Source: a virus. From it: DNA of 33,970 bases. The notes under the pieces are model-generated. The model did no database searches. It worked only from the letters and a program-made list of their open reading frames with translations, and was not told the origin of the DNA. Position 1 is the stretch's first letter; each line of letters starts with the position of its first letter. Shown here one piece after another: positions 3 to 17,608 of this stretch. The translations under genes were made by a program, and so were the position numbers. The DNA is taken from UHGV virus genome UHGV-0040082; one strand, given 5' to 3'.

Positions 3-440
3 TCAGAGGAAGAAATAGGCCCGTTATTGGGTGAATGCAGGTTTACTACTTCGGGTAAGTTGAGACTAAAACCCGGATTGATGCCTACCAGTGACGTTAT
101 CACGCTGGCGCAACACTGTATGTATCACGGTTTAATTGGTGACGGTCCAGAGGAAGACACGGGCGAAAACCATGATGGCGAGTACAAGCCCGCATTCGAC
201 ATCCTTGAATACGTTTACTCCGCCGTTGCTCACCTTGGATTGTCTGAGTCTGAAGCGTGGGGCATGACAATGACCGGATACAGGGCCGCAGTACGCGCTA
301 AAACGCCTCCAGACGAAAGAAACGAGAAACGTAAGCCAAACGTTCAGATAAATAAACGTGATTATGATGAGCAAATGGAGGCCGCTAAGAGGGTGCTGGA
401 ATTTATGAAAAAACGCGAGCAAGAAAAAGCCCGGAATTAA
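3..440 (+). CDS. Hypothetical phage protein, possibly tail assembly chaperone (5' end outside window)
   Basis: Frame is open from position 3 to the TAA at 438-440. Acidic middle, Lys/Arg/Glu-rich C-terminus. Assignment is positional only (upstream of tape measure gene). Confidence 0.35.
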   Translation, partial: SEEEIGPLLGECRFTTSGKLRLKPGLMPTSDVITLAQHCMYHGLIGDGPEEDTGENHDGEYKPAFDILEYVYSAVAHLGLSESEAWGMTMTGYRAAVRAKTPPDERNEKRKPNVQINKRDYDEQMEAAKRVLEFMKKREQEKARN

Positions 441-456
441 CCGGGCCTTTATCTTT
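429..456. terminator. Bidirectional rho-independent terminator
   Basis: Hairpin gcccgg-aattaa-ccgggc (429-446) flanked by an A-run upstream and a T-rich tract downstream; sits between convergent ORFs. Confidence 0.6.
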
Positions 457-757
457 ATTTGTATGCCGCAAATCTGCATCTTGCTTCATCCAGGTCATGA
501 ATATCGTACACGTTATCGTAAATGTAAGTTGCGACCTGTGCTTTCTGTACGTCAGTTGCGTTCGGGAACTCCATGCTTACGAAAGTAACTGCATCAACGT
601 AGTGTTTGAACATCTTTTTGTTAACGCACAGTGCGTAAATCAATACAGCAGGCCAGCAAATCAGCGCACCAAAGAATGCCAGGAGCATATTAAGATGTTT
701 TTTCTGAGCTACAACCATAGTTGCGATAAAGCCGATGAAGCAAATTACCAGTTCCAT
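455..757 (-). CDS. Small membrane protein (two predicted TM helices), moron
   Basis: 100-aa ORF with two hydrophobic stretches near the N-terminus; RBS AAGGGG about 7 nt upstream of ATG; opposite strand to tail genes. Confidence 0.5.
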   Translation of the reverse strand: MELVICFIGFIATMVVAQKKHLNMLLAFFGALICWPAVLIYALCVNKKMFKHYVDAVTFVSMEFPNATDVQKAQVATYIYDNVYDIHDLDEARCRFAAYK

Positions 758-875
758 GATACACCCCTTAATTACGTTTGTCTTCGGTTGTCATTGCCAG
801 CGCCAGTACAGCCATCACATTAAATGCTAACCATGCTGTAATATATACATCTATAACCGTTTTGATTGTTTCCAC

Positions 876-1482: not shown

Positions 1483-3831
1483 ATGGCAACTAGTTTAGGT
1501 ACAATTTACTACGAAGTTGATGCAAAAACTGGTCAACTTCTCGTTGCTCAACGACAGGCAGACCAGGCTTTTGACAGCATCGAGCGTGGCGCAAAACGCG
1601 CTGACCGCCAGGTGAACACGCTTAAGACTTCAATCAAAGCGCTATCCAGGGTTATCCATTTGCTACTTGCTGCGGAGGCTGTACGCCAGTTTATTGACAT
1701 GGCGGAGCAAGCGAAAATGCTTCGCGTAAAAATCAAAATGCTTACTGGTGATACGGAGGCTGCCGGACGTGTTTTCGATGGCCTGAAAGAAATATCAAAA
1801 GAAACCGGGCAAAGCATGAAGGATACTGGCGAACTGTGGCAAGGCCTTGCTATATCGCTAAAAAACACATCCGCTACTGAAGGCCAATTGCTAAACCTGG
1901 TCGGTACGATTCAGAAAATGGGTGCATTAGGCGGAGCGTCAGCGGAACAGATGTCTAACTCTATGCGCCAGTTCCGCCAGTCTATAGACGGCGGCGTGCT
2001 GCGTGCTGAAGAGTTTAACAGTCTGCTTGAAAACACGCCAACCATCGTACAGACAATGGCTCGCCATATGGGGTTGTCAATGGGCCAGTTCCGCGCCGAA
2101 ATGCTGGACGGCAAGATCACGGCTGAAAGGATGGTTAACGCGATTCAGGCGGCTACACAGGAAACAAACGAGAAGTTCGCACAGTTGCCGCGCACATCCG
2201 GCATGGCCTTCAATGAGCTAAAAGTTGAGGTGATGGGACTTGTCGAACAGCTTGACGATCTTTTCGGCATATCTGACGGCGTTGTGTCAGCAATAGACTT
2301 AATCACTGGCGGCGTTGAGGGATTAGGTAAGGGCGCAAAATTCGCCGCAACATGTTTCAATACACTCAAAACCGCTGGTAGCGAGTTCATCGACATGTTT
2401 GACGATGTTGCTGTTAAGGCTGGCGAGGTTGCTGAAGAGATTATCAGGATGGTAACGCCAATCAAGGCGCTAATGGATGGGTACAAATGGATGAAGGAGA
2501 TCATTGACAAACGCAAGGAAGAGCTAAACAGCAACAACGAGAAGAAATTCGGCCCCACCATTGGCAAATTCATGACATTCAAGAATGACATAGAAAAAGC
2601 CACAGCCGCCTATGACGAGTTCATGCAGAAACAGGGTGAGGCTGACGATGGCAAGATCACCGGATTCGATCAGCCAGTTGGTAAGCCCAAAAAAGGCAAA
2701 AAGGGCAAAAATGACAAGAAATCTGAAGCTGATCGGCTTGGTGATGAAGGCATAAAAGTGTCCGACCAGTACAACAAGGACGCCGCCGCCATGCGTAAAG
2801 CGCTGGAGAACGGCAAGGCCATTGATGCTGCGTTCGCTCAGGGCAAAATAACCCTCCTTGAGTACAAGGCCGCGCAGAAAGGGATAGGCAAGGAGCTGAA
2901 GGACGAATTGGCGCAAATCCCTGTTGATGAGCTACGCGACAAATGGGATCACATAGTCAGCCCGATGGATCAGCTTAAGGGAGAAATTGACCCAATCAAG
3001 CAGGCGCAAAATGAATGGGCCGTTCGAAAACAAATGCTGATAGACCTTGGCGCTACAGAGGCGCAACAGAAACAGGCGCTATTGGAATACGAACAACAGA
3101 TCAGAGATCTGAAATGGGAGCAATGGCAGGCGCAAAGCGAAACAAACGGCCTGATTGGTGCTTGCGTTAGTGGCCTGAAAGGTGGAATGGGCAACGCCCT
3201 TACCGGCCTACTAAACGGTACTCAATCGTTAAGCGAGGTTTTCGCCAACCTGGGAAGTAGCATACTTAACACTGTTGGCAACAAACTATCAGAAATTGCC
3301 GCCAACTGGATAGCAGATCAGTTGATGATGGAAACGCAAAGCAAGGCTACCCAGGCAAGTACAACGGCTGGCGCTGTTGCTGCCCAAGGCGAGATTGCGG
3401 CGGCGGCTATCCCGGCGGCGGCGGCAACGGCTGCGTCAACTGGTGGTAGCTGGGCGGCGGCTGGTGCTGCGGCGCTTTCTGCGATCATGTCACTGGCAAC
3501 GTCAATCTTTGGCGGCGGGCGTTATAATGGTGGCTCTGTTAATGGTGGTAGTCTGTATCGCGTAGGGGAACACGGGATTCCTGAGTTATTCCAGACTAGC
3601 AACGGGCGTCAGTATATGATTCCTGGCGAGAATGGTAGGGTAATTCCTGGTCGCGATCTCTTCAGTGGTGGCGGCATCAACATGCCTGTTAACATCACTG
3701 TCCAGACCACAAACGGATTTAGCGACGAAGACAGTCGCAGACTTGAACAGACGATGGAACGCGTCGCAATGAAAATGATGGCAAGGGAATCGCAACGGCC
3801 CGGAGGGATGTTACAACCTCGCAGGAAATAA
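1483..3831 (+). CDS. Tail tape measure protein
   Basis: 782 aa, largely helical/coiled-coil composition, Ala/Gly-rich hydrophobic segment (AAIPAAAATAASTGGSWAAAGAAALSAIMSLA), located upstream of M-L-K-I-J homologs; RBS GAGGT. Confidence 0.85.
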   Translation: MATSLGTIYYEVDAKTGQLLVAQRQADQAFDSIERGAKRADRQVNTLKTSIKALSRVIHLLLAAEAVRQFIDMAEQAKMLRVKIKMLTGDTEAAGRVFDGLKEISKETGQSMKDTGELWQGLAISLKNTSATEGQLLNLVGTIQKMGALGGASAEQMSNSMRQFRQSIDGGVLRAEEFNSLLENTPTIVQTMARHMGLSMGQFRAEMLDGKITAERMVNAIQAATQETNEKFAQLPRTSGMAFNELKVEVMGLVEQLDDLFGISDGVVSAIDLITGGVEGLGKGAKFAATCFNTLKTAGSEFIDMFDDVAVKAGEVAEEIIRMVTPIKALMDGYKWMKEIIDKRKEELNSNNEKKFGPTIGKFMTFKNDIEKATAAYDEFMQKQGEADDGKITGFDQPVGKPKKGKKGKNDKKSEADRLGDEGIKVSDQYNKDAAAMRKALENGKAIDAAFAQGKITLLEYKAAQKGIGKELKDELAQIPVDELRDKWDHIVSPMDQLKGEIDPIKQAQNEWAVRKQMLIDLGATEAQQKQALLEYEQQIRDLKWEQWQAQSETNGLIGACVSGLKGGMGNALTGLLNGTQSLSEVFANLGSSILNTVGNKLSEIAANWIADQLMMETQSKATQASTTAGAVAAQGEIAAAAIPAAAATAASTGGSWAAAGAAALSAIMSLATSIFGGGRYNGGSVNGGSLYRVGEHGIPELFQTSNGRQYMIPGENGRVIPGRDLFSGGGINMPVNITVQTTNGFSDEDSRRLEQTMERVAMKMMARESQRPGGMLQPRRK

Positions 3832-3835
3832 ACAA

Positions 3836-3866
3836 AACCCCGGTACAATGCCGGGGTTATCTTTCG
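3836..3866. terminator. Rho-independent terminator after tape measure gene
   Basis: Hairpin aaccccgg-tacaatg-ccggggtt followed by a T-rich tract. Confidence 0.55.
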
Positions 3867-3975
3867 TATTTATAACCGACCATTCCGCACGATATATCCT
3901 CTTCCGAAAATTACCTGTCAAATATTCCAGTTCCCCCCGCCTGGTGAATTTATCGTCATCCATATTTCACCTCAT

Positions 3976-4500
3976 TTATGTGCCATGATTAACACCATAA
4001 TATTTTTCTTCTAAAAACATCCTGTAAGCTACTGCATCACCGAAATCGTCAAAGTATTTATTGCTTTTTCTTTTTCCGTTCACAGCTATATACACCCTCC
4101 ACTGCTCCCTAGACTTGCACCACGATACACCACGAAAACCGCTAGTATTGTTTGACTTTATTTTCCCACTCCTTACGAAATCAGCACAGTTATCAACCTG
4201 ATAACCTATGTTAAGGTTTTCTATTCTATCATCACCCCTTACGTCGTTAATGTGCCTTATTACATGCTCATCAGGTATCGGGCCGTGATGCATTACCCAT
4301 ATAACTTGATGTCTATAGTAATTTCTCTTTTTATACGTGAATATGTAGTAACCGTTTTTATTCCTGGCGCCCACCGGACCCGGTTTTCTTCTTCCTCCAT
4401 TTTCACATATTAAAGTTTTCCAATATATGTTCCCTTCACTGTATATAAACAAGTCATTCCAGTTTATGCTATTGACCATGTCGTGATTTATTTGTGACAT
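3976..4500 (-). CDS. HNH homing endonuclease with C-terminal AP2-like DNA-binding domain
   Basis: HNH-type motif (HINDVRGDDRIENLN) followed by an AP2-like segment (GFRGVSW...W.V.I..NGK...); AT-rich relative to flanking tail genes; paralog of the ORF at 22125-22631. Confidence 0.8.
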   Translation of the reverse strand: MSQINHDMVNSINWNDLFIYSEGNIYWKTLICENGGRRKPGPVGARNKNGYYIFTYKKRNYYRHQVIWVMHHGPIPDEHVIRHINDVRGDDRIENLNIGYQVDNCADFVRSGKIKSNNTSGFRGVSWCKSREQWRVYIAVNGKRKSNKYFDDFGDAVAYRMFLEEKYYGVNHGT

Positions 4501-8565: not shown

Positions 8566-11500
8566 ATGAGTAGCGGCGGCGGCAAAGCCAAAACACCAAC
8601 ACTATTGAACGATAACCTGTATCACAAACAGTTTTATCGTGTTTTAGATATTCTCAGCGAAGGGCCGATATACGGTCCGGTAAACCAGAAAGCGCCACTG
8701 AATGACGTGATGCTTAATGACACACCTGTTACTGACGCAAACGGGAATACATCAATCCCCGGGATTAGTGTAGCCTGGCGCAACGGCACGGCTGACCAGT
8801 CGCCGATTAATGGTTTTAATGCCATTGAGTCAACCGTTATTGTCAACGCAAAGGTAACTCACGACACGCCAATAATCAGGACTGTTTCAGATCCAAACGT
8901 TACCCGCGTCAGGTTAAATCTTGGTGTTGACGCTCTCGTCCAGTCAGATGAAAAGGGCAATCAATACAATACATCCGTCATGTTGATGGTTGATGTTAAA
9001 CCGTCATCTTCTTCTACGTGGTCGCTGATTAAAGATATACACATTGGTCCCGGCAAACAAAGCGGTGAGTATCTGGAAGCCCACATCATTAAAGCACCGG
9101 ATGAAAAACCGTTTGATATTCGCGTTCGTCGCGTGACAGCAGACAGCCACGGCGATCTATTGCGGAACGATACGCGGTGGAGCAGTTACAGCGAAATAAT
9201 TGACGATAACCTGTCTTATCCCCATACCGCTGTAGCTGGCGCGGTAATTGACCACGATCAATATACTGATACGCCTACACGTACCTATCACCTTCGCGGC
9301 CTGATTGTTGATGTTCCTGATAACTACAACACAGAAACGCGCGCGTATTCTGGTTTATGGCTTGGCGGATTCAAAAAAGCGTACACCAATAACCCTGCGT
9401 GGATTTTCCGGTATCTGGTTAAAAACGAGCGCTTCGGGCTTGCTAAACATGCTGGTTACATTGATGTTGATGATGGCGCTTTGTACGTGCTCTCCCAATA
9501 CTGCGATCAGTTGGTTGATGATGGCTATGGTGGCCTTGAACCTCGCATGACGCTTAACGCTTACATTACGGAGCAAATGAGCGCCCGCGACCTACTGGAT
9601 AACATTGCAGGTATGTTCCGTGGTATCGCGTTATGGGACGGGCAACGCCTTACCGTGATGATTGATGCACCACAGGATCCAATTGCCACCATCACAAACG
9701 CAAACGTCGTTGATGGCGCGTTTACTCGCTCAAGTCTTCCGCTTGCAGAGTGTTACAACGCCGTGATCGTATCATGGACTGACCCGGAAAACGGCTGGGA
9801 GCAATCAAAAGAATACGTGGCAGATGATGAACTAATCGCCCGCGATGGTTATAACGAAACCACGTTGGAGGCGTTCGGGTGCACGTCACGCGGGCAAGCG
9901 TACCGCGCTGGTAAATGGCTGATAGAAACAGCAAAACGCGAGCCGTCTAAATTCACGTTTAAAATGGCCCGTGACGCAATTCACTTCACCCCTGGTGATA
10001 TTATCGAGATACTCGACAATAACCGCGCTGGCGCTCGTTTAGGCGGTCGCATCGTGGCAAACAACGGCAGGGTTATCACTGTCGATAAGGTTGATTCTGA
10101 ATATATCGCCCCCGGCGACACCATTAGCCTGCTTGATAGTGACGGCAAATTTAAAAAACACCAGATCACCGGAGTTAGCGGAAACAAAATTACCCTTGCA
10201 TCTGCCCCGGCATGGATTCGTAACGGTACTGTGTTTGCCGTGTCAACTAACGCAGCAAAACCCGTATTGTGTCGAATCGTCAGCGTGGCGGAAACTGAAA
10301 ATAACAGCGTGTACACCATAGAGGCTGCACAGCATGATCCGCACAAACAGGCTGTAGTAGATAATGGCGCAATCTTTGAGGTCAACAACGATACGCTTAA
10401 TCACTTCCGCGTGCCAAACATTGAAAACCTGAAGGTGTTAAACATTGGATCTGAAACAGTTCAATGCCGCGCAACATGGGAAACACTGACGACAACTCAT
10501 CGCCTGACCTTTGAAATCCGCGTATACAATTCAGCGGGGGCCGTAGTTAAAAGCTACGAAACTACTAATTACAGTTATGATTTTTATGGCATTGATGCGG
10601 GAACCTACTCATTAGGCATCCGTGGCAGAAATGACACGGGCATGAAGGGTGCTGAAAGCATTGTGGATCTGGTTATTGGTGCACCAGCGGCCCCGGTAGG
10701 AGTTAACTGGGTTCCCGGTGTATTTCAGGCTACAGTTTACCCGATCAGCAGAACAACGCTTACCACTGACACCAGTTATGAGTTTTATTACTCAGGTGAA
10801 AAACAGATCACCGATCCGGCATCAGTAACCACTAAGGCACAATATACCGGGCGTGGTCATCAGTGGACTTTTGGCGGCATGAACACGGGGCACACCTATT
10901 ACGTTTATGTGCGCACACGCAATGCTTTTGGCGTGTCTGACTTTGTGGAGGCATCAGGTAAGCCGACAGAGAATTTTGATGAAATCAGCGATTACGTCAC
11001 CAAAGACGTGATGAACTCAGAACAGTTCAAGGAAATGATTGGTGACATCAAAGATCTTGGTGATCGCACGGATGTTATTGAAAATGCCACAAATGAACTA
11101 AAAGCAGCTACCGACAACCTCAAAACTGCAACTGATAATCTGACCAACATAACTGACGATTTAAGAACTGAAACCGACAACCTGACTAACATAACCGAAG
11201 ATTTAAGAAATGATACTGACAACCTGATTACAGAAACAGGATCAATAAAAGCTGATACAGATACGCTAAAAAAAGAAACAGAAGATCTTTATAAAAAAGT
11301 TAAGGAAAACGCCGATGATATTGGTCAGCATGAGTCAAGAATTGATTCATTAGAAGTGTCCAGCGAAAAAGTTGGCAGCGAACTGGCGCAAGCAAAAGCA
11401 AGCCTGCAAAACGCGTCATTGGCGCTTATCAACAACTCGCTTGCACAGACAAACACGCGCGTTACCCTTACCGCCCAGTACAAAAAAGGCAGAACGGAAA

Positions 11501-14115
11501 CGAAAGCGGAAATTGACCGTATTGACAACGTTATCGCTGAAGAGAAAAAAGCAACGGCTGAATCACTGAAAACCATCACGGCAGAAATGAACACGATGGA
11601 TTCCAACCTTAAAGGTCAGATCTCCAGTGTGGAACGCGCAGTGGCTGACGAGGCTAGTGCCCGCGCTGAAGCTATTAACGGTGTGAACGCCTCAATAAGC
11701 AATCTCGACAAGAAAACGGATGCCAGCGTCAATAGGCTTGATCAGGCTATTGCAGATGAAACGAACGCCCGCACACAGGCGGTCAGTGACGTTAACGCAA
11801 GTATCTCGGTACTTGATAAGAAAACTGACGCCAGCGTTAAACGCCTGGATCAGGCAATCGCTGACGAAACCAGCGCAAGAACCGAAGCTATCAGTGGCGT
11901 GAACGCATCAATTTCAACGCTTGATAGCAAAGTGGAAAGCAATATAACGCGCATAGATAAAGCTATTGCAGATGAAACGCAGGCGCGTACAGACGCAATA
12001 AGCGGCGTCAAAGCGAGCATTAACACACTTGAAGGCAACACCAATTCAGAAGTTAAACGTCTGGATCAGGCAATCGCTGACGAGGCCAGTGCCCGCACAC
12101 AGGCGGTAAGTGATGTAAAAGCATCAGTAAGCAACCTTGAAAGCAAAACTGACGCCAGCGTTAAACGCCTGGATAAAGCTATTGCAGACGAAACAAGCGC
12201 ACGCAGCGAAGCTATTAGTGGGGTAAATGCCTCAGTATCAGCGCTCGACAAGAAAACCGATTCAAGCATAAGCCGCCTTGATAAAGCCATTGCGGATGAA
12301 ACAAGCGCGAGAACCGAAGCCATCAACGGTGTGAATGCGTCAATTTCCACACTCGACGGCAAGGTTACAAGTAACGTTAGCCGCCTTGATAAAGCAATAT
12401 CAGACGAAACGAAGGCAAGAAGCGACGCAATAACAGAGGTTAAAGCAGACTTAACAACGCTTGAGAACAGCACAAACGCCAGCGTTAAGCGTCTTGATCA
12501 GGCAATTGCCGATGAATCAAGCGCCCGCGCACAAGCAATATCAGGACTCAGCGCAAATCTTGGCACTGTTGAAAATAATGTTGGCAAAAACAGCGACGAA
12601 ATAAATCAGGCAAAAGCAAGCCTGCAAAACGCATCTATTGCACTTATCAATAACTCAATCGCTCAAACCAACACGCGTGTTACTCTTTCAGCCCAATACA
12701 AGAAAGGAATCAGAGAAACCAACGCGAAAATTGACCGCATTGACAATGTTGTAGCAGAAGAGAAAAAAGCAACGGCAGAAGCCATTAGCGGGGTAAGCGC
12801 ATCGATCACCGATCTTGATAAGAAAACTGAAGCAAGCGTTAACCGCCTTGACAGGGCGATTGCAGACGAAACAAGCGCCCGCAGCGAGGCTATCAGCGGC
12901 GTGAATGCGTCAATTTCCACGCTTGATAGTAATGTGAAAAGCGACATTACCAGGATGGACAAAGCCATCGCCGATGAAACAAAAGCACGCGCAGACGCAA
13001 TAAGCGGCCTTAGCGCATCGCTTACCAGTACGATCAACTCAAAAGTGTCTGAAGTGTCAACGGCACTTTCTACGCATGAGGAATCAAGTGCAGAAAAATT
13101 TAGCCAGATCTCGGCGTCTTTCGAATCAGTAAACTCAAGCATTACAGAATGGTCGCAGGCAATGGCTACAGCAGATAAGGCGTTGTCAACGAAAATTGAT
13201 CAGCTAACAGTGACTGTTAACGGGAATAAGACGGCAATAGAGACGACATCTAAAGCGTTAACCGACTTTAAGGGTAATGTTGATGCGTCATATTCAATTA
13301 AGCTCGCCACCGACAACAACGGCATGAAATACGCAACAGGTATGTCACTTGGCCTTACTGGTGATGGGACCAACTTTCAGTCGCAGTGTATTTTCCTTGT
13401 TGACCGCTTCGTGTTAATGACTGACGCTAACGGTTCGTATCAAACGCCTTTCTATGTAACTAATGGCGCAATGTATGTAAGAGAAGCGTTTATTAAAGAC
13501 GGCACTATCAACTCCGCCAAAATAGCTGATCTAATACAGTCAGTTAATTATAGCTGGGAAGGCGCGACAGGATGGGCGATAAATAAAAACGGTAACGCAG
13601 TATTTAACCAAGTAACCGTAAGGGGGACGGTATACGCTAATGCTGGTGTGTTTAACGGTACTGTTTACGCAACTGGCGGTAAATTTACTGGAGCAGTTGA
13701 AGCCACAAGTTTTGTTGGTGACGTAGCAAGTATGTCAGTGATAAACGAGAAAGTATTTCCGTCAATGAGGGGGAGCGGCAGCAGGGAAACTTCAAAAACT
13801 TATCTTGATTCAAGTTCATCAAGTTTATCAAAAACCGTTTACGTTATGATTCCGTATGATTTGTCATACTATACACATAGTGAATCTTCTCGTATCAGCG
13901 TAACTATAAACATAAACGGACACGCAAAAACAATTAATATAGAAAGGCCAGCATCAGGTCCATCAATGTCATCTGTCGCGGTGCACTGTGTACATGACCT
14001 AACATACCCAACAATTACAGTCAAGGTTACGGAAAACTTTACCAATACATCCGCTGCATCAATAAGAAAACCAGGCTTGATACTTATAACAAGAAGTTCA
14101 GGAACATGGGTATAA
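8566..14115 (+). CDS. J: Host specificity protein J (central tail fiber / tip attachment), with a large repeat insert
   Basis: 1849 aa. N-terminal ~800 aa and C-terminal ~330 aa follow recalled lambda J (e.g. ILSEGPI.GP, YHLRG.I..VP.NYN, AFGCTSRGQA.RAG.WL, HFTPGD.IEI.D, AAQH.P.K.A.VDNGA). Residues ~830-1510 are a repeat-rich insert not in lambda J. Confidence 0.9.
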   Translation: MSSGGGKAKTPTLLNDNLYHKQFYRVLDILSEGPIYGPVNQKAPLNDVMLNDTPVTDANGNTSIPGISVAWRNGTADQSPINGFNAIESTVIVNAKVTHDTPIIRTVSDPNVTRVRLNLGVDALVQSDEKGNQYNTSVMLMVDVKPSSSSTWSLIKDIHIGPGKQSGEYLEAHIIKAPDEKPFDIRVRRVTADSHGDLLRNDTRWSSYSEIIDDNLSYPHTAVAGAVIDHDQYTDTPTRTYHLRGLIVDVPDNYNTETRAYSGLWLGGFKKAYTNNPAWIFRYLVKNERFGLAKHAGYIDVDDGALYVLSQYCDQLVDDGYGGLEPRMTLNAYITEQMSARDLLDNIAGMFRGIALWDGQRLTVMIDAPQDPIATITNANVVDGAFTRSSLPLAECYNAVIVSWTDPENGWEQSKEYVADDELIARDGYNETTLEAFGCTSRGQAYRAGKWLIETAKREPSKFTFKMARDAIHFTPGDIIEILDNNRAGARLGGRIVANNGRVITVDKVDSEYIAPGDTISLLDSDGKFKKHQITGVSGNKITLASAPAWIRNGTVFAVSTNAAKPVLCRIVSVAETENNSVYTIEAAQHDPHKQAVVDNGAIFEVNNDTLNHFRVPNIENLKVLNIGSETVQCRATWETLTTTHRLTFEIRVYNSAGAVVKSYETTNYSYDFYGIDAGTYSLGIRGRNDTGMKGAESIVDLVIGAPAAPVGVNWVPGVFQATVYPISRTTLTTDTSYEFYYSGEKQITDPASVTTKAQYTGRGHQWTFGGMNTGHTYYVYVRTRNAFGVSDFVEASGKPTENFDEISDYVTKDVMNSEQFKEMIGDIKDLGDRTDVIENATNELKAATDNLKTATDNLTNITDDLRTETDNLTNITEDLRNDTDNLITETGSIKADTDTLKKETEDLYKKVKENADDIGQHESRIDSLEVSSEKVGSELAQAKASLQNASLALINNSLAQTNTRVTLTAQYKKGRTETKAEIDRIDNVIAEEKKATAESLKTITAEMNTMDSNLKGQISSVERAVADEASARAEAINGVNASISNLDKKTDASVNRLDQAIADETNARTQAVSDVNASISVLDKKTDASVKRLDQAIADETSARTEAISGVNASISTLDSKVESNITRIDKAIADETQARTDAISGVKASINTLEGNTNSEVKRLDQAIADEASARTQAVSDVKASVSNLESKTDASVKRLDKAIADETSARSEAISGVNASVSALDKKTDSSISRLDKAIADETSARTEAINGVNASISTLDGKVTSNVSRLDKAISDETKARSDAITEVKADLTTLENSTNASVKRLDQAIADESSARAQAISGLSANLGTVENNVGKNSDEINQAKASLQNASIALINNSIAQTNTRVTLSAQYKKGIRETNAKIDRIDNVVAEEKKATAEAISGVSASITDLDKKTEASVNRLDRAIADETSARSEAISGVNASISTLDSNVKSDITRMDKAIADETKARADAISGLSASLTSTINSKVSEVSTALSTHEESSAEKFSQISASFESVNSSITEWSQAMATADKALSTKIDQLTVTVNGNKTAIETTSKALTDFKGNVDASYSIKLATDNNGMKYATGMSLGLTGDGTNFQSQCIFLVDRFVLMTDANGSYQTPFYVTNGAMYVREAFIKDGTINSAKIADLIQSVNYSWEGATGWAINKNGNAVFNQVTVRGTVYANAGVFNGTVYATGGKFTGAVEATSFVGDVASMSVINEKVFPSMRGSGSRETSKTYLDSSSSSLSKTVYVMIPYDLSYYTHSESSRISVTININGHAKTINIERPASGPSMSSVAVHCVHDLTYPTITVKVTENFTNTSAASIRKPGLILITRSSGTWV
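11629..13080 (+). repeat. Tandem 108-bp (36-aa) coding repeats inside J, about 11 copies in two arrays
   Basis: Repeating unit RLDQAIADETSARTEAISGVNASISTLDSK.....VK visible in protein and DNA; the segment AKASLQNASLALINNSLAQTNTRVTLTAQYKKG...IDRIDNV.AEEKKATAE occurs twice (DNA ~11386 and ~12604). Confidence 0.8.
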
Positions 14116-14121
14116 AAATAA

Positions 14122-14149
14122 CCCCGCTTCGCGCGGGGTTTTCTTTTAG
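14122..14149. terminator. Rho-independent terminator after J (bidirectional)
   Basis: Hairpin ccccgc-ttcgc-gcgggg followed by ttttctttt; A-run on the other side. Confidence 0.7.
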
Positions 14150-14385
14150 TAGTTAGCTACACAGTTAGAAGGGCTACCGATGCGGCGCATGTTGTGATCG
14201 AGTTCATGACACCATTGACCAGTATAAGGCAGTTTTTCAGTGTCATAGACAAGATGACCTTCACCATCATAGACAACATCTTGTGGAATTACTCCGCTAT
14301 TCGGCAGGTTATGCAATGCGGCCTCTTTGTCAACAGCGCAACCAGTAAGAGCTACGGCCGCAGAGAATAAAACCACTTTGAACAT
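14146..14385 (-). CDS. Small lipoprotein (candidate Cor/Llp-type superinfection exclusion protein)
   Basis: 79 aa; N-terminus MFKVVLFSAAVALTGC = signal peptide plus lipobox; small mature part with two Cys; opposite strand between J and the side tail fiber. Confidence 0.55.
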   Translation of the reverse strand: MFKVVLFSAAVALTGCAVDKEAALHNLPNSGVIPQDVVYDGEGHLVYDTEKLPYTGQWCHELDHNMRRIGSPSNCVANY

Positions 14386-14572: not shown

Positions 14573-17500
14573 ATGATTTACACAACTGGAACAGTTGCCA
14601 TTAACGGCAATACTGTTAAAGGCACGGGAACAAACTTTTCCGCGCCGCTTTCTCTTATTCGTGTAGGTTGCACGCTCATTGCTGTTGGCAATCCTGTGCA
14701 GATCTTTACCATCACGGAAATTAAAAGCGGCACTGAACTGTTAGTGACGCCAGCAGCTAACCCCGCAATCCCTGCCGGGACAAAATTTAGCATCCTGCTA
14801 TCTGATTCGATCTCAGTTGATGGGCTTGCTCAGGACGTAGCTGAAACCCTGCGTTACTACCAGAGCAAAGAAACAGAAATCGCCTCCGCCGTAGAGTGGT
14901 GGAATGAGATCGGCGGCGAAGGTCAGTTGGATCAGCTTCTTACCAACATTCGCGCAGAAACAGCCAAATCAACCGCTAACGCTCAAAAAACAGAAACTGA
15001 CAAAAACGCAGCAGAAGCGTCAAAAACAGCGGCTGCAAAATCCGCCACGGCAGCGAAAACATCAGAAACCAACGCTAAGGCAAGCGAGACGGCAGCGAAA
15101 ACAAGCGAAACCAAAGCCAAAACATCAGAGGACAGGGCGCAAGAATATCTGAATCAAATGGGAAGGCTTACCAGCCCAATGGTCCAATGTGCTTGGCCTG
15201 TTGAAACTAGCGGTAATGGCGCTTACGTTAAGATTGCTAAACTTAGCGATCCAAAGTCATCAGACTGCCACTTAACGCTAATGGTTACAAATGGCGGTGG
15301 CTACGGTTTAAGTTACGGGAATATTGACTTTATAGAGATCTCCGCTCGAGGTCTTAACGACACAGGCGAAGTAACCAGTGAAAATATATCTAAATTTTTA
15401 AGTATTCGCCGACTCGGTTCACCAAACCTTCCCAATAATAGTCAAATGTGTTACGGCCTGGTTAAAGGTGACGGCTATATCGAGGTCTGGTGCTACCAGC
15501 GATCTTATATTAAAAACACAAAAGTAGCGGTGCTGGCGCAGACTGGCAACACGGAATTATACATTCCTGAAGGATTTGTTAAGCAAGCCGACGCACCCGC
15601 TGGATATATTGAAAGCCCAGCAGCAAGGATTTACGACCAGGTAAACAAACCCAGCAAGGCAGATCTGGGCCTTTCTAATGCTATGCTTACAGGCGCTTTC
15701 GGTCTTGGCGGTAGCGGGATATCAACAACCGGCAAGATGAGCGATGTAGAGATCTTAAAAGCTCTGCGTGACAAAGGTGGTCATTTCTGGCGCAGTGATA
15801 GGCCGACCGGAAGTACGGCGACCATTTATAGCCGCGGTTCTGGTATATTCTCGCGGTGCGGCGATACGTGGTCGGCGATCAATATCGACTACGGAACAGG
15901 TAAAGTCAAGGTTTACGCTGGTAACGATGGTGGACTTAATAGTGGTAATTTTTCCGTCAATGAGCTATACGGAACCAAAAATAAACCGTCGAAATCGGAC
16001 GTTGGACTTGACAACGTAACCAACGATGCACAGGTTAAAAAATCCGGCGACACCATGACTGGCGACCTGTCGATCACTAAAGCAACACCTTCGATATACA
16101 TTCGTTCAAAAAGTGGAACCGCCCATGTATGGTTCCAGAATGAGGATCAATCGGAACGCGGTGTTATCTGGGCGCCTACCAATTCCGAAGGACTTGGCGA
16201 AGTTCACATCAGGGCCAAAAATACAAAAGGTGAATCAACTGGTGAACTCATTGTTCGTCACGACGGGGAAATTAGGGTTCCCAGTCTCACAGCGAGTAAA
16301 AAAATAAAAGGCGCAACCGCAGATTTTACAAACACATCAGAAACCACGACGGAGAACACGTTAAAAATCAGCGGTAAGCAGCATACACCGTTAGTTTTAA
16401 CGCGTACCGGGTATTCTGAAAACCTGTCCATTGGCTTCAAGGTTGATAACGTTGTTCAAAAATACCTCGGTATTAATAGCGGTGGGGATCTGTGTTTTGG
16501 TGATTATGCCGATCACAAAACAAACAGCAAAGTTATCACGCAAGCAGTGCTTGATAGCGGTGTGACGGTAGGCGGTCAGACAACCTTTTCTAAACTTGCC
16601 ACATTTAGCAAAGGCATGACCGGGCCTATCGTACCGGAAGGGCTTGACTCACGTACCATTGATCTTAATGACCTAATCATCAATGGTTCAGATATAGGAT
16701 CGGTCAAATACTATCAATGTACATCTTCCAGTGGTGGAGCGAACATTACCAACAAGCCTGACGGCGTAGGCGGTAACTTCTTGCTGCGTGTAGAGTCAGT
16801 CCGTAAAGTTAGTGATACTGACTATATAAGTATGCAAACACTGACTAGTGGCGACAAAGAACGCGTATTTGTTCGTTTTAATACTAATAGTAAGTGGACA
16901 GCATGGTGTGAACCTGTTGTATCGGGATGGAAGCAGGATGTGTCTGTTAAGACGCTAACAGCAGCCGAAGACGTCATCCTTAAAAACAGTGATACTGGTC
17001 CGCGCCTTATTTTAAGGAACTCTAACACATCGGCGCAGTCGTGGAGTGTAAGGGTGTGGGGTGAAAGCGGAAGGGAAAGCGTTTTTGAGGTTGGTAACAG
17101 CAATAGTTACATGTTCTATGCTCAGGAAGATGCAGCAGGAAACAAGAAATTTGACTTTAACGGTGATATTTCATGTAAGACGCTATATCAAACTTCTGAC
17201 CAGAGCCTTAAAGACAACATTAAGGTTATAGGTGACGCCACCGAATCCATCCGCAAAATGAATGGGTACACCTACACGTTTAAGGACGATGGCCTGCCTT
17301 ACGCTGGCGTTATTGCACAGGAAGTAATGGACGCGCTGCCTGAAGCGATAGCGTTTACCACTCTTTGCGGCAAGGAGCTACAAGGACCAACAACTGACGG
17401 CAACATCTTACGCGAGGAAATGAAGTGCCTCAGCGTTGACTATGCGGCGGTGACTGGTTTACTTGTCCAGGTGGCACGCGAAACGGATAACCGCGTCACC

Positions 17501-17608
17501 GAACTGGAAGAGGAGAACGCAAGCCTGAAAGCTAACATTGCCGCAATGGATGAGCGGATAGCAAAACTTGAAGCGCTTATCAGTCAGTTGACCGGAAGCG
17601 AAGAATAA
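14573..17608 (+). CDS. Side tail fiber with C-terminal intramolecular chaperone (peptidase S74-like) domain
   Basis: 1011 aa; Ala/Thr/Lys-rich heptad-like N-terminal repeats; C-terminus has SDQSLKDNI...GVIAQEV...P.A motif typical of self-cleaving fiber chaperone domains, then a coiled-coil tail; RBS GGAG. Confidence 0.8.
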   Translation: MIYTTGTVAINGNTVKGTGTNFSAPLSLIRVGCTLIAVGNPVQIFTITEIKSGTELLVTPAANPAIPAGTKFSILLSDSISVDGLAQDVAETLRYYQSKETEIASAVEWWNEIGGEGQLDQLLTNIRAETAKSTANAQKTETDKNAAEASKTAAAKSATAAKTSETNAKASETAAKTSETKAKTSEDRAQEYLNQMGRLTSPMVQCAWPVETSGNGAYVKIAKLSDPKSSDCHLTLMVTNGGGYGLSYGNIDFIEISARGLNDTGEVTSENISKFLSIRRLGSPNLPNNSQMCYGLVKGDGYIEVWCYQRSYIKNTKVAVLAQTGNTELYIPEGFVKQADAPAGYIESPAARIYDQVNKPSKADLGLSNAMLTGAFGLGGSGISTTGKMSDVEILKALRDKGGHFWRSDRPTGSTATIYSRGSGIFSRCGDTWSAINIDYGTGKVKVYAGNDGGLNSGNFSVNELYGTKNKPSKSDVGLDNVTNDAQVKKSGDTMTGDLSITKATPSIYIRSKSGTAHVWFQNEDQSERGVIWAPTNSEGLGEVHIRAKNTKGESTGELIVRHDGEIRVPSLTASKKIKGATADFTNTSETTTENTLKISGKQHTPLVLTRTGYSENLSIGFKVDNVVQKYLGINSGGDLCFGDYADHKTNSKVITQAVLDSGVTVGGQTTFSKLATFSKGMTGPIVPEGLDSRTIDLNDLIINGSDIGSVKYYQCTSSSGGANITNKPDGVGGNFLLRVESVRKVSDTDYISMQTLTSGDKERVFVRFNTNSKWTAWCEPVVSGWKQDVSVKTLTAAEDVILKNSDTGPRLILRNSNTSAQSWSVRVWGESGRESVFEVGNSNSYMFYAQEDAAGNKKFDFNGDISCKTLYQTSDQSLKDNIKVIGDATESIRKMNGYTYTFKDDGLPYAGVIAQEVMDALPEAIAFTTLCGKELQGPTTDGNILREEMKCLSVDYAAVTGLLVQVARETDNRVTELEEENASLKANIAAMDERIAKLEALISQLTGSEE

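Follow-up and report, generated by a model that had tools for sequence, protein, structure and literature searches.

We show that the J-like gene of the window, the whole 33,970-nucleotide (nt) stretch of virus genome UHGV-0040082 that was analysed, encodes a central tail fibre or tip attachment protein (hereafter J) in which a long, repeat-built and predominantly helical segment is predicted to separate the tail-tip domains from the receptor-binding end (Table 1). The protein matches the structure of lambda J (8iyk_J, E=2.5e-184) and carries five Pfam families of J proteins, FNIII-A_GpJ, Phage-tail_3, Ig_J, Ig_J_second and Phage_Tail_Tip, all above their gathering scores; J 815-1555, between the last two, has no significant Pfam domain. 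Pfam searches on the upstream open reading frames (ORFs) place a tape measure gene (TMP_3), L (Phage_tail_L), a K-like gene (NLPC_P60 and Prok-JAB) and an I-like gene ahead of J, and the same order, tape measure-L-K-I-J, is found in the coliphages mEp021 and mEp554. The NCBIfam model NF049904 (lambda_TipJ) scores 720.7 bits, below its cut-off of 1950, and matches residues 1-887 only. Judged by its sequence, the protein is a member of the J family, yet not an equivalent of lambda J.

Lambda J has 1132 amino acids (aa) and the protein described here 1849, with about 700 extra residues in its middle, much as an earlier note on this DNA had estimated from a lambda length of ~1130 aa. Alignment pairs J 1-851 with lambda 1-858 (39% identity) and J 1553-1736 with lambda 840-1010, so that the extra sequence splits the alpha-helical segment (AHS) of lambda: J 802-851 corresponds to lambda 809-858, and the sequence from J 1553 on to that from lambda 840 on. 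Residues 809-861 of lambda make up the AHS, a three-helix bundle with FNIII-2 on one side and the beta-prism central straight fibre on the other (PMC11101478; PDB 8xck, 8xcj). The segment studied here lies in the same place, after FNIII-2 and before the beta-prism, and differs from the AHS in its length (~755 residues against 53 in lambda) and in its 36-aa units, its block A copies and its fold-switch motif matches, none of which occur in the lambda element. Since both of its ends align to the lambda AHS, we read it as the expansion of an existing AHS- or pyocin-type element rather than as an insertion. An origin as foreign inserted DNA was considered and rejected on the same alignment and on a GC content that stays flat along the J gene (0.42-0.50). 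The helical segment spans J ~802-1556 (nt 10969-13233); the earlier note had correctly placed it in the centre of the protein, within limits (11040-13100) that prove too narrow.

The shaft is built from a small number of sequence types. A proximal part of short helices and heptads is followed by a first copy of a 58-residue block (block A), an array of nine contiguous 36-aa units, a second copy of block A, a partial unit, an array of two further units and a distal non-repeated part. The short repeats near its start, previously described as 11-aa repeats, are ten heptads with a period of 7 aa, which Tandem Repeats Finder (TRF) registers as 14 aa. Eleven full 36-aa (108-nt) units begin at J 1021, 1057, 1093, 1129, 1165, 1201, 1237, 1273, 1309, 1427 and 1463, in agreement with the count of about eleven in the earlier note. 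Their consensus is RLDKAIADETSARTEAISGVNASISTLDKKTDSSVK, with seven columns invariant across all eleven and a glycine at position 19 in most. The 108-nt register was found independently by TRF (score 289) and by a repeat search, and the repeat pattern is far beyond chance. Any two units are 50-78% identical in nucleotides (mean 60%) and 33-86% in protein, and exact direct repeats in 10800-13400 reach 30 nt at most, so the DNA repeats, contrary to what had been supposed, are not near-identical. The duplication first estimated at ~180 bp measures 174 nt in each copy of block A; the copies share 81% nucleotide and 86% amino acid identity and are spaced 1218 nt (406 aa) apart. The non-helical core of block A is AQTNTRVTLTAQYKKG, and the cores of both copies read AQTNTRVTL(T/S)AQ.

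Table 1. Features of the J gene and its product. Residues are those of J, positions those of the window. AF2, AlphaFold2; pLDDT, predicted local distance difference test score.
Feature	Residues	Positions	Strand	Basis
J-like central tail fibre / tip attachment protein gene	1-1849	8566..14115	+	ORF, Pfam, lambda J structure match, gene order
Hub and FNIII/Ig domains, colinear with lambda J 1-808	1-801	8566..10968	+	39% identity to lambda J over 867 aa; Pfam end at J 811
FNIII-A_GpJ	88-214			Pfam
Phage-tail_3	335-492			Pfam
Ig_J	609-707			Pfam
Ig_J_second	709-811			Pfam
Proximal shaft	802-941	10969..11388	+	aligns to lambda 809-858; TRF; AF2 helix J 835-921
Proximal short helices	802-835	10969-11070	+	aligned to lambda 809 onward
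Ten heptads xTDxLxx	844-913	11095-11304	+	TRF period 42 nt (14 aa)
Block A copy 1, 58 aa	942-999	11389..11562	+	direct repeat
Array 1, nine contiguous 36-aa units	1021-1344	11626..12597	+	repeat detection, hydrophobic period, AF2 helix
Block A copy 2	1348-1405	12607..12780	+	direct repeat of copy 1
Partial unit, 21 aa	1406-1426	12781-12843	+	
Array 2, two 36-aa units	1427-1498	12844-13059	+	AF2 helix pLDDT >90 (second model); F2-pyocin shaft homology
Distal non-repeat shaft	1499-1556	13060..13233	+	end aligns to C-terminal half of lambda AHS
Phage_Tail_Tip (PF09327, E=9e-39)	1557-1694			Pfam
Beta-prism central straight fibre (Phage_Tail_Tip)	1557-1694	13234..13647	+	PF09327; AF2 beta meander; Foldseek
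C-terminal receptor-binding domain	~1718-1849	13717..14112	+	AF2 beta-sandwich, pLDDT 80-95

Our structural models were made with AF2 as monomers in two runs, one on J 796-1849 with a 57-sequence alignment and one on J 1400-1849 with 91 diverse sequences. The first run predicts helices at J 804-816, 819-832, 835-921, 939-959, 979-1364 and 1376-1545, with a shaft pLDDT of 55-75; array 1 falls inside the single 386-residue helix at J 979-1364, and the helices are interrupted at J 922-938 and in both block A cores (J 960-978, with pLDDT 27-44, and J 1365-1375). In the second run J 1401-1518 is a helix with pLDDT >90, followed by a beta meander of 11-13-residue strands, with strands at J 1541-1611 directly C-terminal to the shaft, and by a confident C-terminal beta domain. 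The best Foldseek matches of the C-terminal part were closed-state, lambda-type gpJ713 central fibres, first that of A8 (gpJ 713, 9wca_F, E=3.2e-11) and next that of lambda (8xck_F, E=2.8e-10). Structure prediction, which the earlier note had proposed for this region, thus returns a helical shaft at J ~804-1545 that is interrupted at the block A cores, and together with the Pfam domains it places this shaft where an extended fibrous spacer had been expected, between the tip-complex part and the C-terminal receptor-binding domain. The shaft/beta-prism junction, J 1541-1566 (13186-13263), is helix or coil in the first run and two strands in the second; it aligns to lambda 841-861, the part that turns from helix to strand on LamB binding (PMC11101478).

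Additionally, the hydrophobic moment has a dominant period of 3.60 residues in the arrays and of 3.54 in the heptad region (J 836-940, z=10), and helical hydrophobic periodicity was found neither in block A nor in the N- and C-terminal control domains. The hydrophobic peaks of the arrays are harmonics of 36, of which the tenth, the alpha-helical one, is the strongest. The canonical heptad period of 3.5 (7/2) fits J 836-940 only, and the array period of 3.60 (36/10) implies a nearly straight bundle. If fully extended at 0.15 nm per residue, the ~690 predicted helical residues would measure ~100 nm. Searches of the 36-aa arrays against PDB sequences found no solved structure with such units, apart from weak matches at the distal end, and Pfam, NCBIfam and PHROGs searches with the shaft alone returned generic coiled-coil noise only (SMC, SF-assemblin, tape measure).

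These results bear on the possibility that the 36-aa units are already beta-structured or helix-loop in the virion, the AF2 helices being an artefact of monomer prediction. The glycine at position 19 and the GPxGP sequence present in each unit of a distant homologue, P0121, are in line with such a fold, as are the AlphaFold3 beta-prisms reported for 30% of related central fibre proteins (PMC12874032). We nevertheless consider it very improbable, given the dominant hydrophobic harmonic at 3.60, the helix pLDDT above 90 at J 1401-1518, the lack of proline in the 759-residue helical segment (which also has no cysteine) and three cryo-electron microscopy studies in which the homologous shaft of the pyocin is a coiled coil.

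The homology to pyocins concerns the distal quarter of the shaft: J 1404-1615 matches residues 917-1123 of the F2-pyocin tail fibre (25vf_A, E=1.5e-16). The T1 protein gp33 (9l9p_S), which carries the same IADETQAR repeat, is matched at E=4.4e-13, and the J-like protein 23gd_D is matched more weakly by J 1404-1615. In F-type pyocins this segment has been resolved by cryo-electron microscopy, in three studies of 2026, as a trimeric coiled-coil shaft with docked side fibres (PMC13455828; 10.64898/2026.02.24.707460; PMC12874032). We propose, with a probability of about 0.7, that the region is a greatly lengthened alpha-helical central-fibre shaft, the counterpart of the coiled-coil element of lambda (AHS), pyocins and T1, and that it serves as a trimeric reach-extender of ~100 nm. 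Some observations weigh against this proposal. Both AF2 runs were made on monomers, and shaft pLDDT in the first was only 55-75. A kinked or interrupted helix is possible, because glycine occupies position 19 in most units and the P0121 units contain GPxGP. Moreover, the paper on the mEpimmI coliphages, the group discussed next, reports tails of ~130 nm and mentions no long distal fibre (PMC11893012); a thin trimeric coiled-coil shaft might be hard to see in negative stain.

Sequence comparison identifies the window phage as a member of the mEpimmI group. Its J gene shares 83-90% nucleotide identity over 57-86% of its length with those of mEp554, mEp044, mEp010, mEp013, mEp021, mEp515 and MagusPhagus, and the first 25 kb are 85.5-90% identical over 33-64% to phages of the mEp021 group. 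Repeat-bearing J proteins of differing size were already described for mEpimmI phages in 2025, with 'repeats of different length (positions 950-1,475)' (PMC11893012 section 3.6), and the annotated J proteins of mEp021 and mEp554 have 1727 and 1828 aa. In alignment the window J fits this layout of a repeat region at ~950-1475, a conserved stretch and a variable terminus, and it shares gene order, domain order, heptads, block A and 36-aa units with mEpimmI J proteins and related E. coli prophages. The shaft is therefore standard for a described J subfamily, which the earlier note had named as an outcome that would refute its reading. Two differences stand out. The units are distributed 9 + 2 around the second block A in the window and 7 + 4 in mEp021 and mEp554, and the receptor-binding domain, of a type common to the E. 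coli prophages of strains MIN12, 2-331 and N921, is unlike those of mEp554 and mEp021 in alignment and unlike those of the mEpimmI phages that use LamB (four phages) or OmpA (two phages) as receptors (PMC11893012). That paper gives the repeats without a structural or mechanistic reading, and the 36-residue step, the block A recombination and the fold-switch motif described here are absent from the cited literature on these J proteins.

Shaft length in this family varies in discrete steps. A related J gene occurs in 35 of 5426 complete E. coli genomes, and the closest prophage copies are 93-94% identical over 95-97% of the gene. The repeat counts of related prophages, whose comparison the earlier note had recommended, differ by whole units: J has 1777, 1813 and 1813 aa in strains MIN12, 2-331 and N921, and their shafts show in-register gaps of exactly 36 or 72 aa relative to the window. 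Among 121 homologues that could be parsed, the shaft, taken from the FNIII end to the tail-tip domain, has between 369 and 775 aa, most often 485; block A is single in the short forms and double in the long ones. The window is at the maximum, and its J is the longest of the 126 family members measured. The shaft has 775 aa alike in the window, mEp021 and mEp554; this equality, found despite the different placement of the second block A, could be a coincidence, an upper length limit or the outcome of gene conversion. In one homologue, P0049 (1443 aa), the shaft is of the window type but lacks precisely the 406 aa that separate the block A copies, at 93% ungapped identity, and its single block A is a hybrid of both copies, a signature of recombination between them. 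These comparisons support the view that the shaft was built, and is still being remodelled, by duplication and deletion of units and by one 406-aa segmental duplication, in keeping with the repeat expansion and duplication suggested from the window sequence. By the same comparisons, the shaft is a normal, length-variable design of mEpimmI-type J at the long end of the family. The precomputed Pfam family PF28217.1 is annotated on most homologues (P0001-P0120, P0188, P0190 and P0124), including fragments that start inside array 2, and it probably models the distal shaft.

The same data speak to the concern, raised in the earlier note, that the repeats had been mis-assembled, either in unit number or in the 406-aa duplication. 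The region is repetitive, and an exact-sequence gene index returned no contig. Collapse during assembly is unlikely because the units have diverged (50-78% nucleotide identity) and the longest exact repeat is so short; moreover, no unit interrupts the reading frame, the shafts of mEp021 and mEp554 are equally long, three complete E. coli chromosomes show the same layout with one or two units fewer, and the identical 1849-aa protein is present on 3 contigs, the longest of 54,515 bp. An assembly artefact is thus hardly credible, and the sequences of the relatives indicate that their copy-number differences are real alleles rather than errors. The suspicion that copy number is variable was well founded; the suspicion of mis-assembly was not.

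Under the proposed reading, three J chains would form a parallel helical bundle that runs from the FNIII domains closing the tip to the beta-prism and the receptor-binding domain, with two short non-helical interruptions at the block A cores. Because 36 residues make ten turns at 3.60 residues per turn, the gain or loss of a unit would change the length by ~5.4 nm and leave the hydrophobic seam unrotated. The alleles with shafts of 369-775 residues would arise by unequal recombination, both among units and between the block A copies. The thin shaft would carry a small receptor-binding domain well in front of the tail tip, and the number of units may set the reach to outer-membrane proteins through O-antigen or capsule. 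A folded-back, antiparallel packing of the two arrays was also considered and judged unlikely, as they have nine and two units and vary independently among relatives.

It is possible that the shaft does more than extend reach. In the F7 pyocin, 163 shaft residues convert into a triangular beta-prism on target binding, upon which the tip opens and the tape measure is ejected; the strands carry a conserved motif, SxSxxMxxLxS, in alternating orientation, and similar switches were predicted in 21 of 24 siphophage central fibres (PMC12874032). J 802-1560 contains 22 forward and 21 reverse matches to this motif, and shuffled sequences gave 5.4 +/- 2.3, with 0 of 1000 reaching the observed value. Every 36-aa unit has a forward match at position 12 (ARTEAISGVNA) and a reverse match at position 33 (ASVKRLDQAIA), and each block A has the order reverse-forward-reverse-forward. 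The proximal shaft, J 802-941, has 0 forward matches and 1 reverse match, and the motif is at chance level or missing in the heptads, the first 800 residues, the beta-prism with the receptor-binding domain, the tape measure, the side fibre and the lambda AHS. A permutation of unit columns, which keeps the repeat structure and is a fair control because the units share ancestry, gave all nine units matches in both orientations in 0.75% of cases.

The arrangement resembles that of F-type pyocin fibres (PyoF10 / PA0641; PDB 25vf) in the homologous shaft leading into a beta-prism and in the alternating motif. It resembles F7 in the succession, after the FNIII domains, of ~140 motif-free residues (~100 in the F7 'spine'), a motif-bearing coiled coil and a beta-prism seed, which makes the proximal shaft a candidate counterpart of the non-switching spine. 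On the other hand, the pyocin shaft has ~163-180 residues and is mostly heptad-based, whereas that of the window, with its 36-residue (3.60) period, is longer by a factor of about four; the pyocin fibre has docked side fibres and no terminal receptor-binding domain; and the fold switch has been demonstrated in the pyocin and only inferred for the window J. By analogy with F7, we tentatively suggest, at odds somewhat below even, that after receptor binding the motif-bearing J 942-1556 refolds out of the coiled coil into a beta-prism. Such a change would make the fibre about four to five times shorter, draw the tip to the membrane and free the FNIII closure. More doubtful is a version in which the whole of J 942-1556 (~615 residues, ~92 nm) acts as one fold-switch spring, zipping from the distal beta-prism seed into a prism of ~17-23 nm. 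Such a spring would draw the tail tip over ~70 nm to the outer membrane and release the FNIII closure, and the number of 36-residue units would set both reach and stored energy, tuned by unequal recombination. If true, it would exceed every fold switch known, with about fourfold the 163 residues of F7, and would occur in phages that plate on E. coli K-12.

Several points count against the fold-switch step. The shuffle statistics are inflated by the shared descent of the units, and the fair control gives p ~0.01, not 0. The step rests on homology and on a motif sought after its publication, because AF2 gave no beta-prism alternative for array 2; indeed, AF2 returned no such alternative in either array with the 57- or the 91-sequence alignment, a weak test, as the published predictions used trimers or alignment subsampling. 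The fold-switch study is a preprint (PMC12874032), the switch it demonstrates covers 163 residues, and propagation over ~615 residues or past the block A interruptions would be an extrapolation from it. Finally, lambda, whose J is nearest to the N-terminal 800 residues among solved relatives, shows no extensive switching: its rearrangement on receptor binding is limited to residues 809-861 (PMC11101478).

This restricted change in lambda fits a shaft that is a passive spacer, namely a static, semi-flexible coiled coil that bends at the block A cores and at its distal end, as lambda and T5 fibres do, and in which only the last ~20-50 residues refold, as in lambda, the repeats having no part in a fold switch. 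The helix predicted by AF2 with high confidence and without a beta alternative is compatible with this, the two or three predicted breaks could serve as hinges, and such a spacer would easily tolerate the two-fold range of shaft lengths seen among viable relatives. However, the distal shaft is homologous to the F7 pyocin segment shown to switch, the motif alternates in every unit and block A yet is absent from the equally helical heptad region, and a rod of ~100 nm leaves unexplained how FNIII release is brought about 700 residues from the receptor-binding domain. We regard a passive spacer as a serious contender, although at odds somewhat below even.

A further function, compatible with either a static or a refolding shaft, is that of a rail on which side fibres dock, with block A or the glycine-containing units as sites and the 1011-aa side tail fibre (14573-17608, +) as the candidate ligand. 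Side fibres of F-pyocins bind the AHS at a glycine kink (PMC13455828; 10.64898/2026.02.24.707460), the pyocin kink region aligns with the AISGVNAS stretch of the 36-aa unit, and the side-fibre gene lies directly downstream of J. Yet the N-terminal 237 aa of the side fibre match the anchor domain of a Klebsiella phage depolymerase (7vyv, E=4.5e-37) rather than pyocin side fibres, and docking needs neither eleven units nor variable unit numbers, which makes a docking platform unlikely. At residues ~130-190 the side fibre also has an Ala/Lys/Thr/Glu-rich stretch of AKTSE-type repeats, and its C-terminal part is a Peptidase_S74 intramolecular chaperone. Other fibres stand at this position in the closest E. 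coli prophages.

The 36-aa unit has a narrow distribution, as its profile finds only 52 matches at E<=0.001 among 1.84 billion representative proteins (cluster representatives). Pfam identifies two of the six strongest matches as J-like, one of them a protein of 1922 aa with 14 matched stretches, and gives a third a weak crescentin match; the other three have no match. P0121 (1219 aa, unannotated and without a Pfam match) contains seven 36-aa units of the type VTQLTQAIADETSARTEALSQLQASIIGPSGALTAA, with an ADETSAR core and a GPxGP turn in each, and its sequence leads us to suspect a J-like host-specificity protein. In either case the 36-aa unit is of old origin and does not always form a continuous helix. 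In the Klebsiella Drexlerviridae phage vB_Kpn_K62PH164C2, J has 2229 aa, more than the window J, and carries AIATETEAR units at the same 36-residue spacing, so that long repeat-built shafts are not unique to the mEpimmI group. In Klebsiella Drexlerviridae J and T1 gp33, as in the window J, AIA(D/T)ETxAR repeats occupy a long helical stretch that has the FNIII domains before it and the tail-tip domain after it, and a ~37 nm protrusion has been predicted at the gp33 C-terminus. They belong to other phage families, however, with only ~27% identity in the shaft and a repeat period of ~33 in T1, and neither has an experimental shaft structure. A repeat-built trimeric shaft of adjustable length with a small distal binding domain is also found in adenovirus fibres, trimeric autotransporter stalks and Bdellovibrio MAT fibres. 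The design principle is shared without shaft homology, the Foldseek matches 8ond, 8ok3 and 8okh touching the C-terminal beta domains only.

Within the repeat region, AT skew stands out at 11200-13199 (0.26-0.41), and ORFs of 93-159 aa lie on the minus strand at 11325-11606, 12066-12473 and 12663-13142; these are probably by-products of a repetitive, A-rich coding strand. Between J and the side-fibre gene, a 79-aa ORF (14146-14385, -) begins MFKVVLFSAAVALTGCAV, a lipoprotein signal with an LTGC lipobox. It occupies the spot where the mEpimmI paper puts Lpp superinfection-exclusion lipoproteins, and an NCBIfam search with it gave no match. A putative HNH endonuclease gene lies between I and J in mEp021 (3437-4003 of the mEp021 sequence) and has no counterpart in the window or in mEp554.

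It is an open question how non-contractile tails reach across to the outer membrane and where they obtain the energy for opening, and it has only just been addressed for F-type pyocins. The J proteins of mEpimmI phages constitute a natural series of one shaft whose length rises by 36-residue steps between 369 and 775 residues; the phages are temperate, multiply on E. coli K-12 and use known receptors, LamB and OmpA. This series makes it possible to test how shaft length relates to receptor access through O-antigen or capsule, and whether a coiled-coil-to-prism switch can extend over hundreds of residues. It also explains, as real shaft alleles, why 'phage tail tip fiber protein' genes of E. 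coli range from ~1370 to 1850 aa. With its 36-residue quantum, the recombination between its block A copies and its fold-switch motif, the mEpimmI J family is a good experimental system for these questions.

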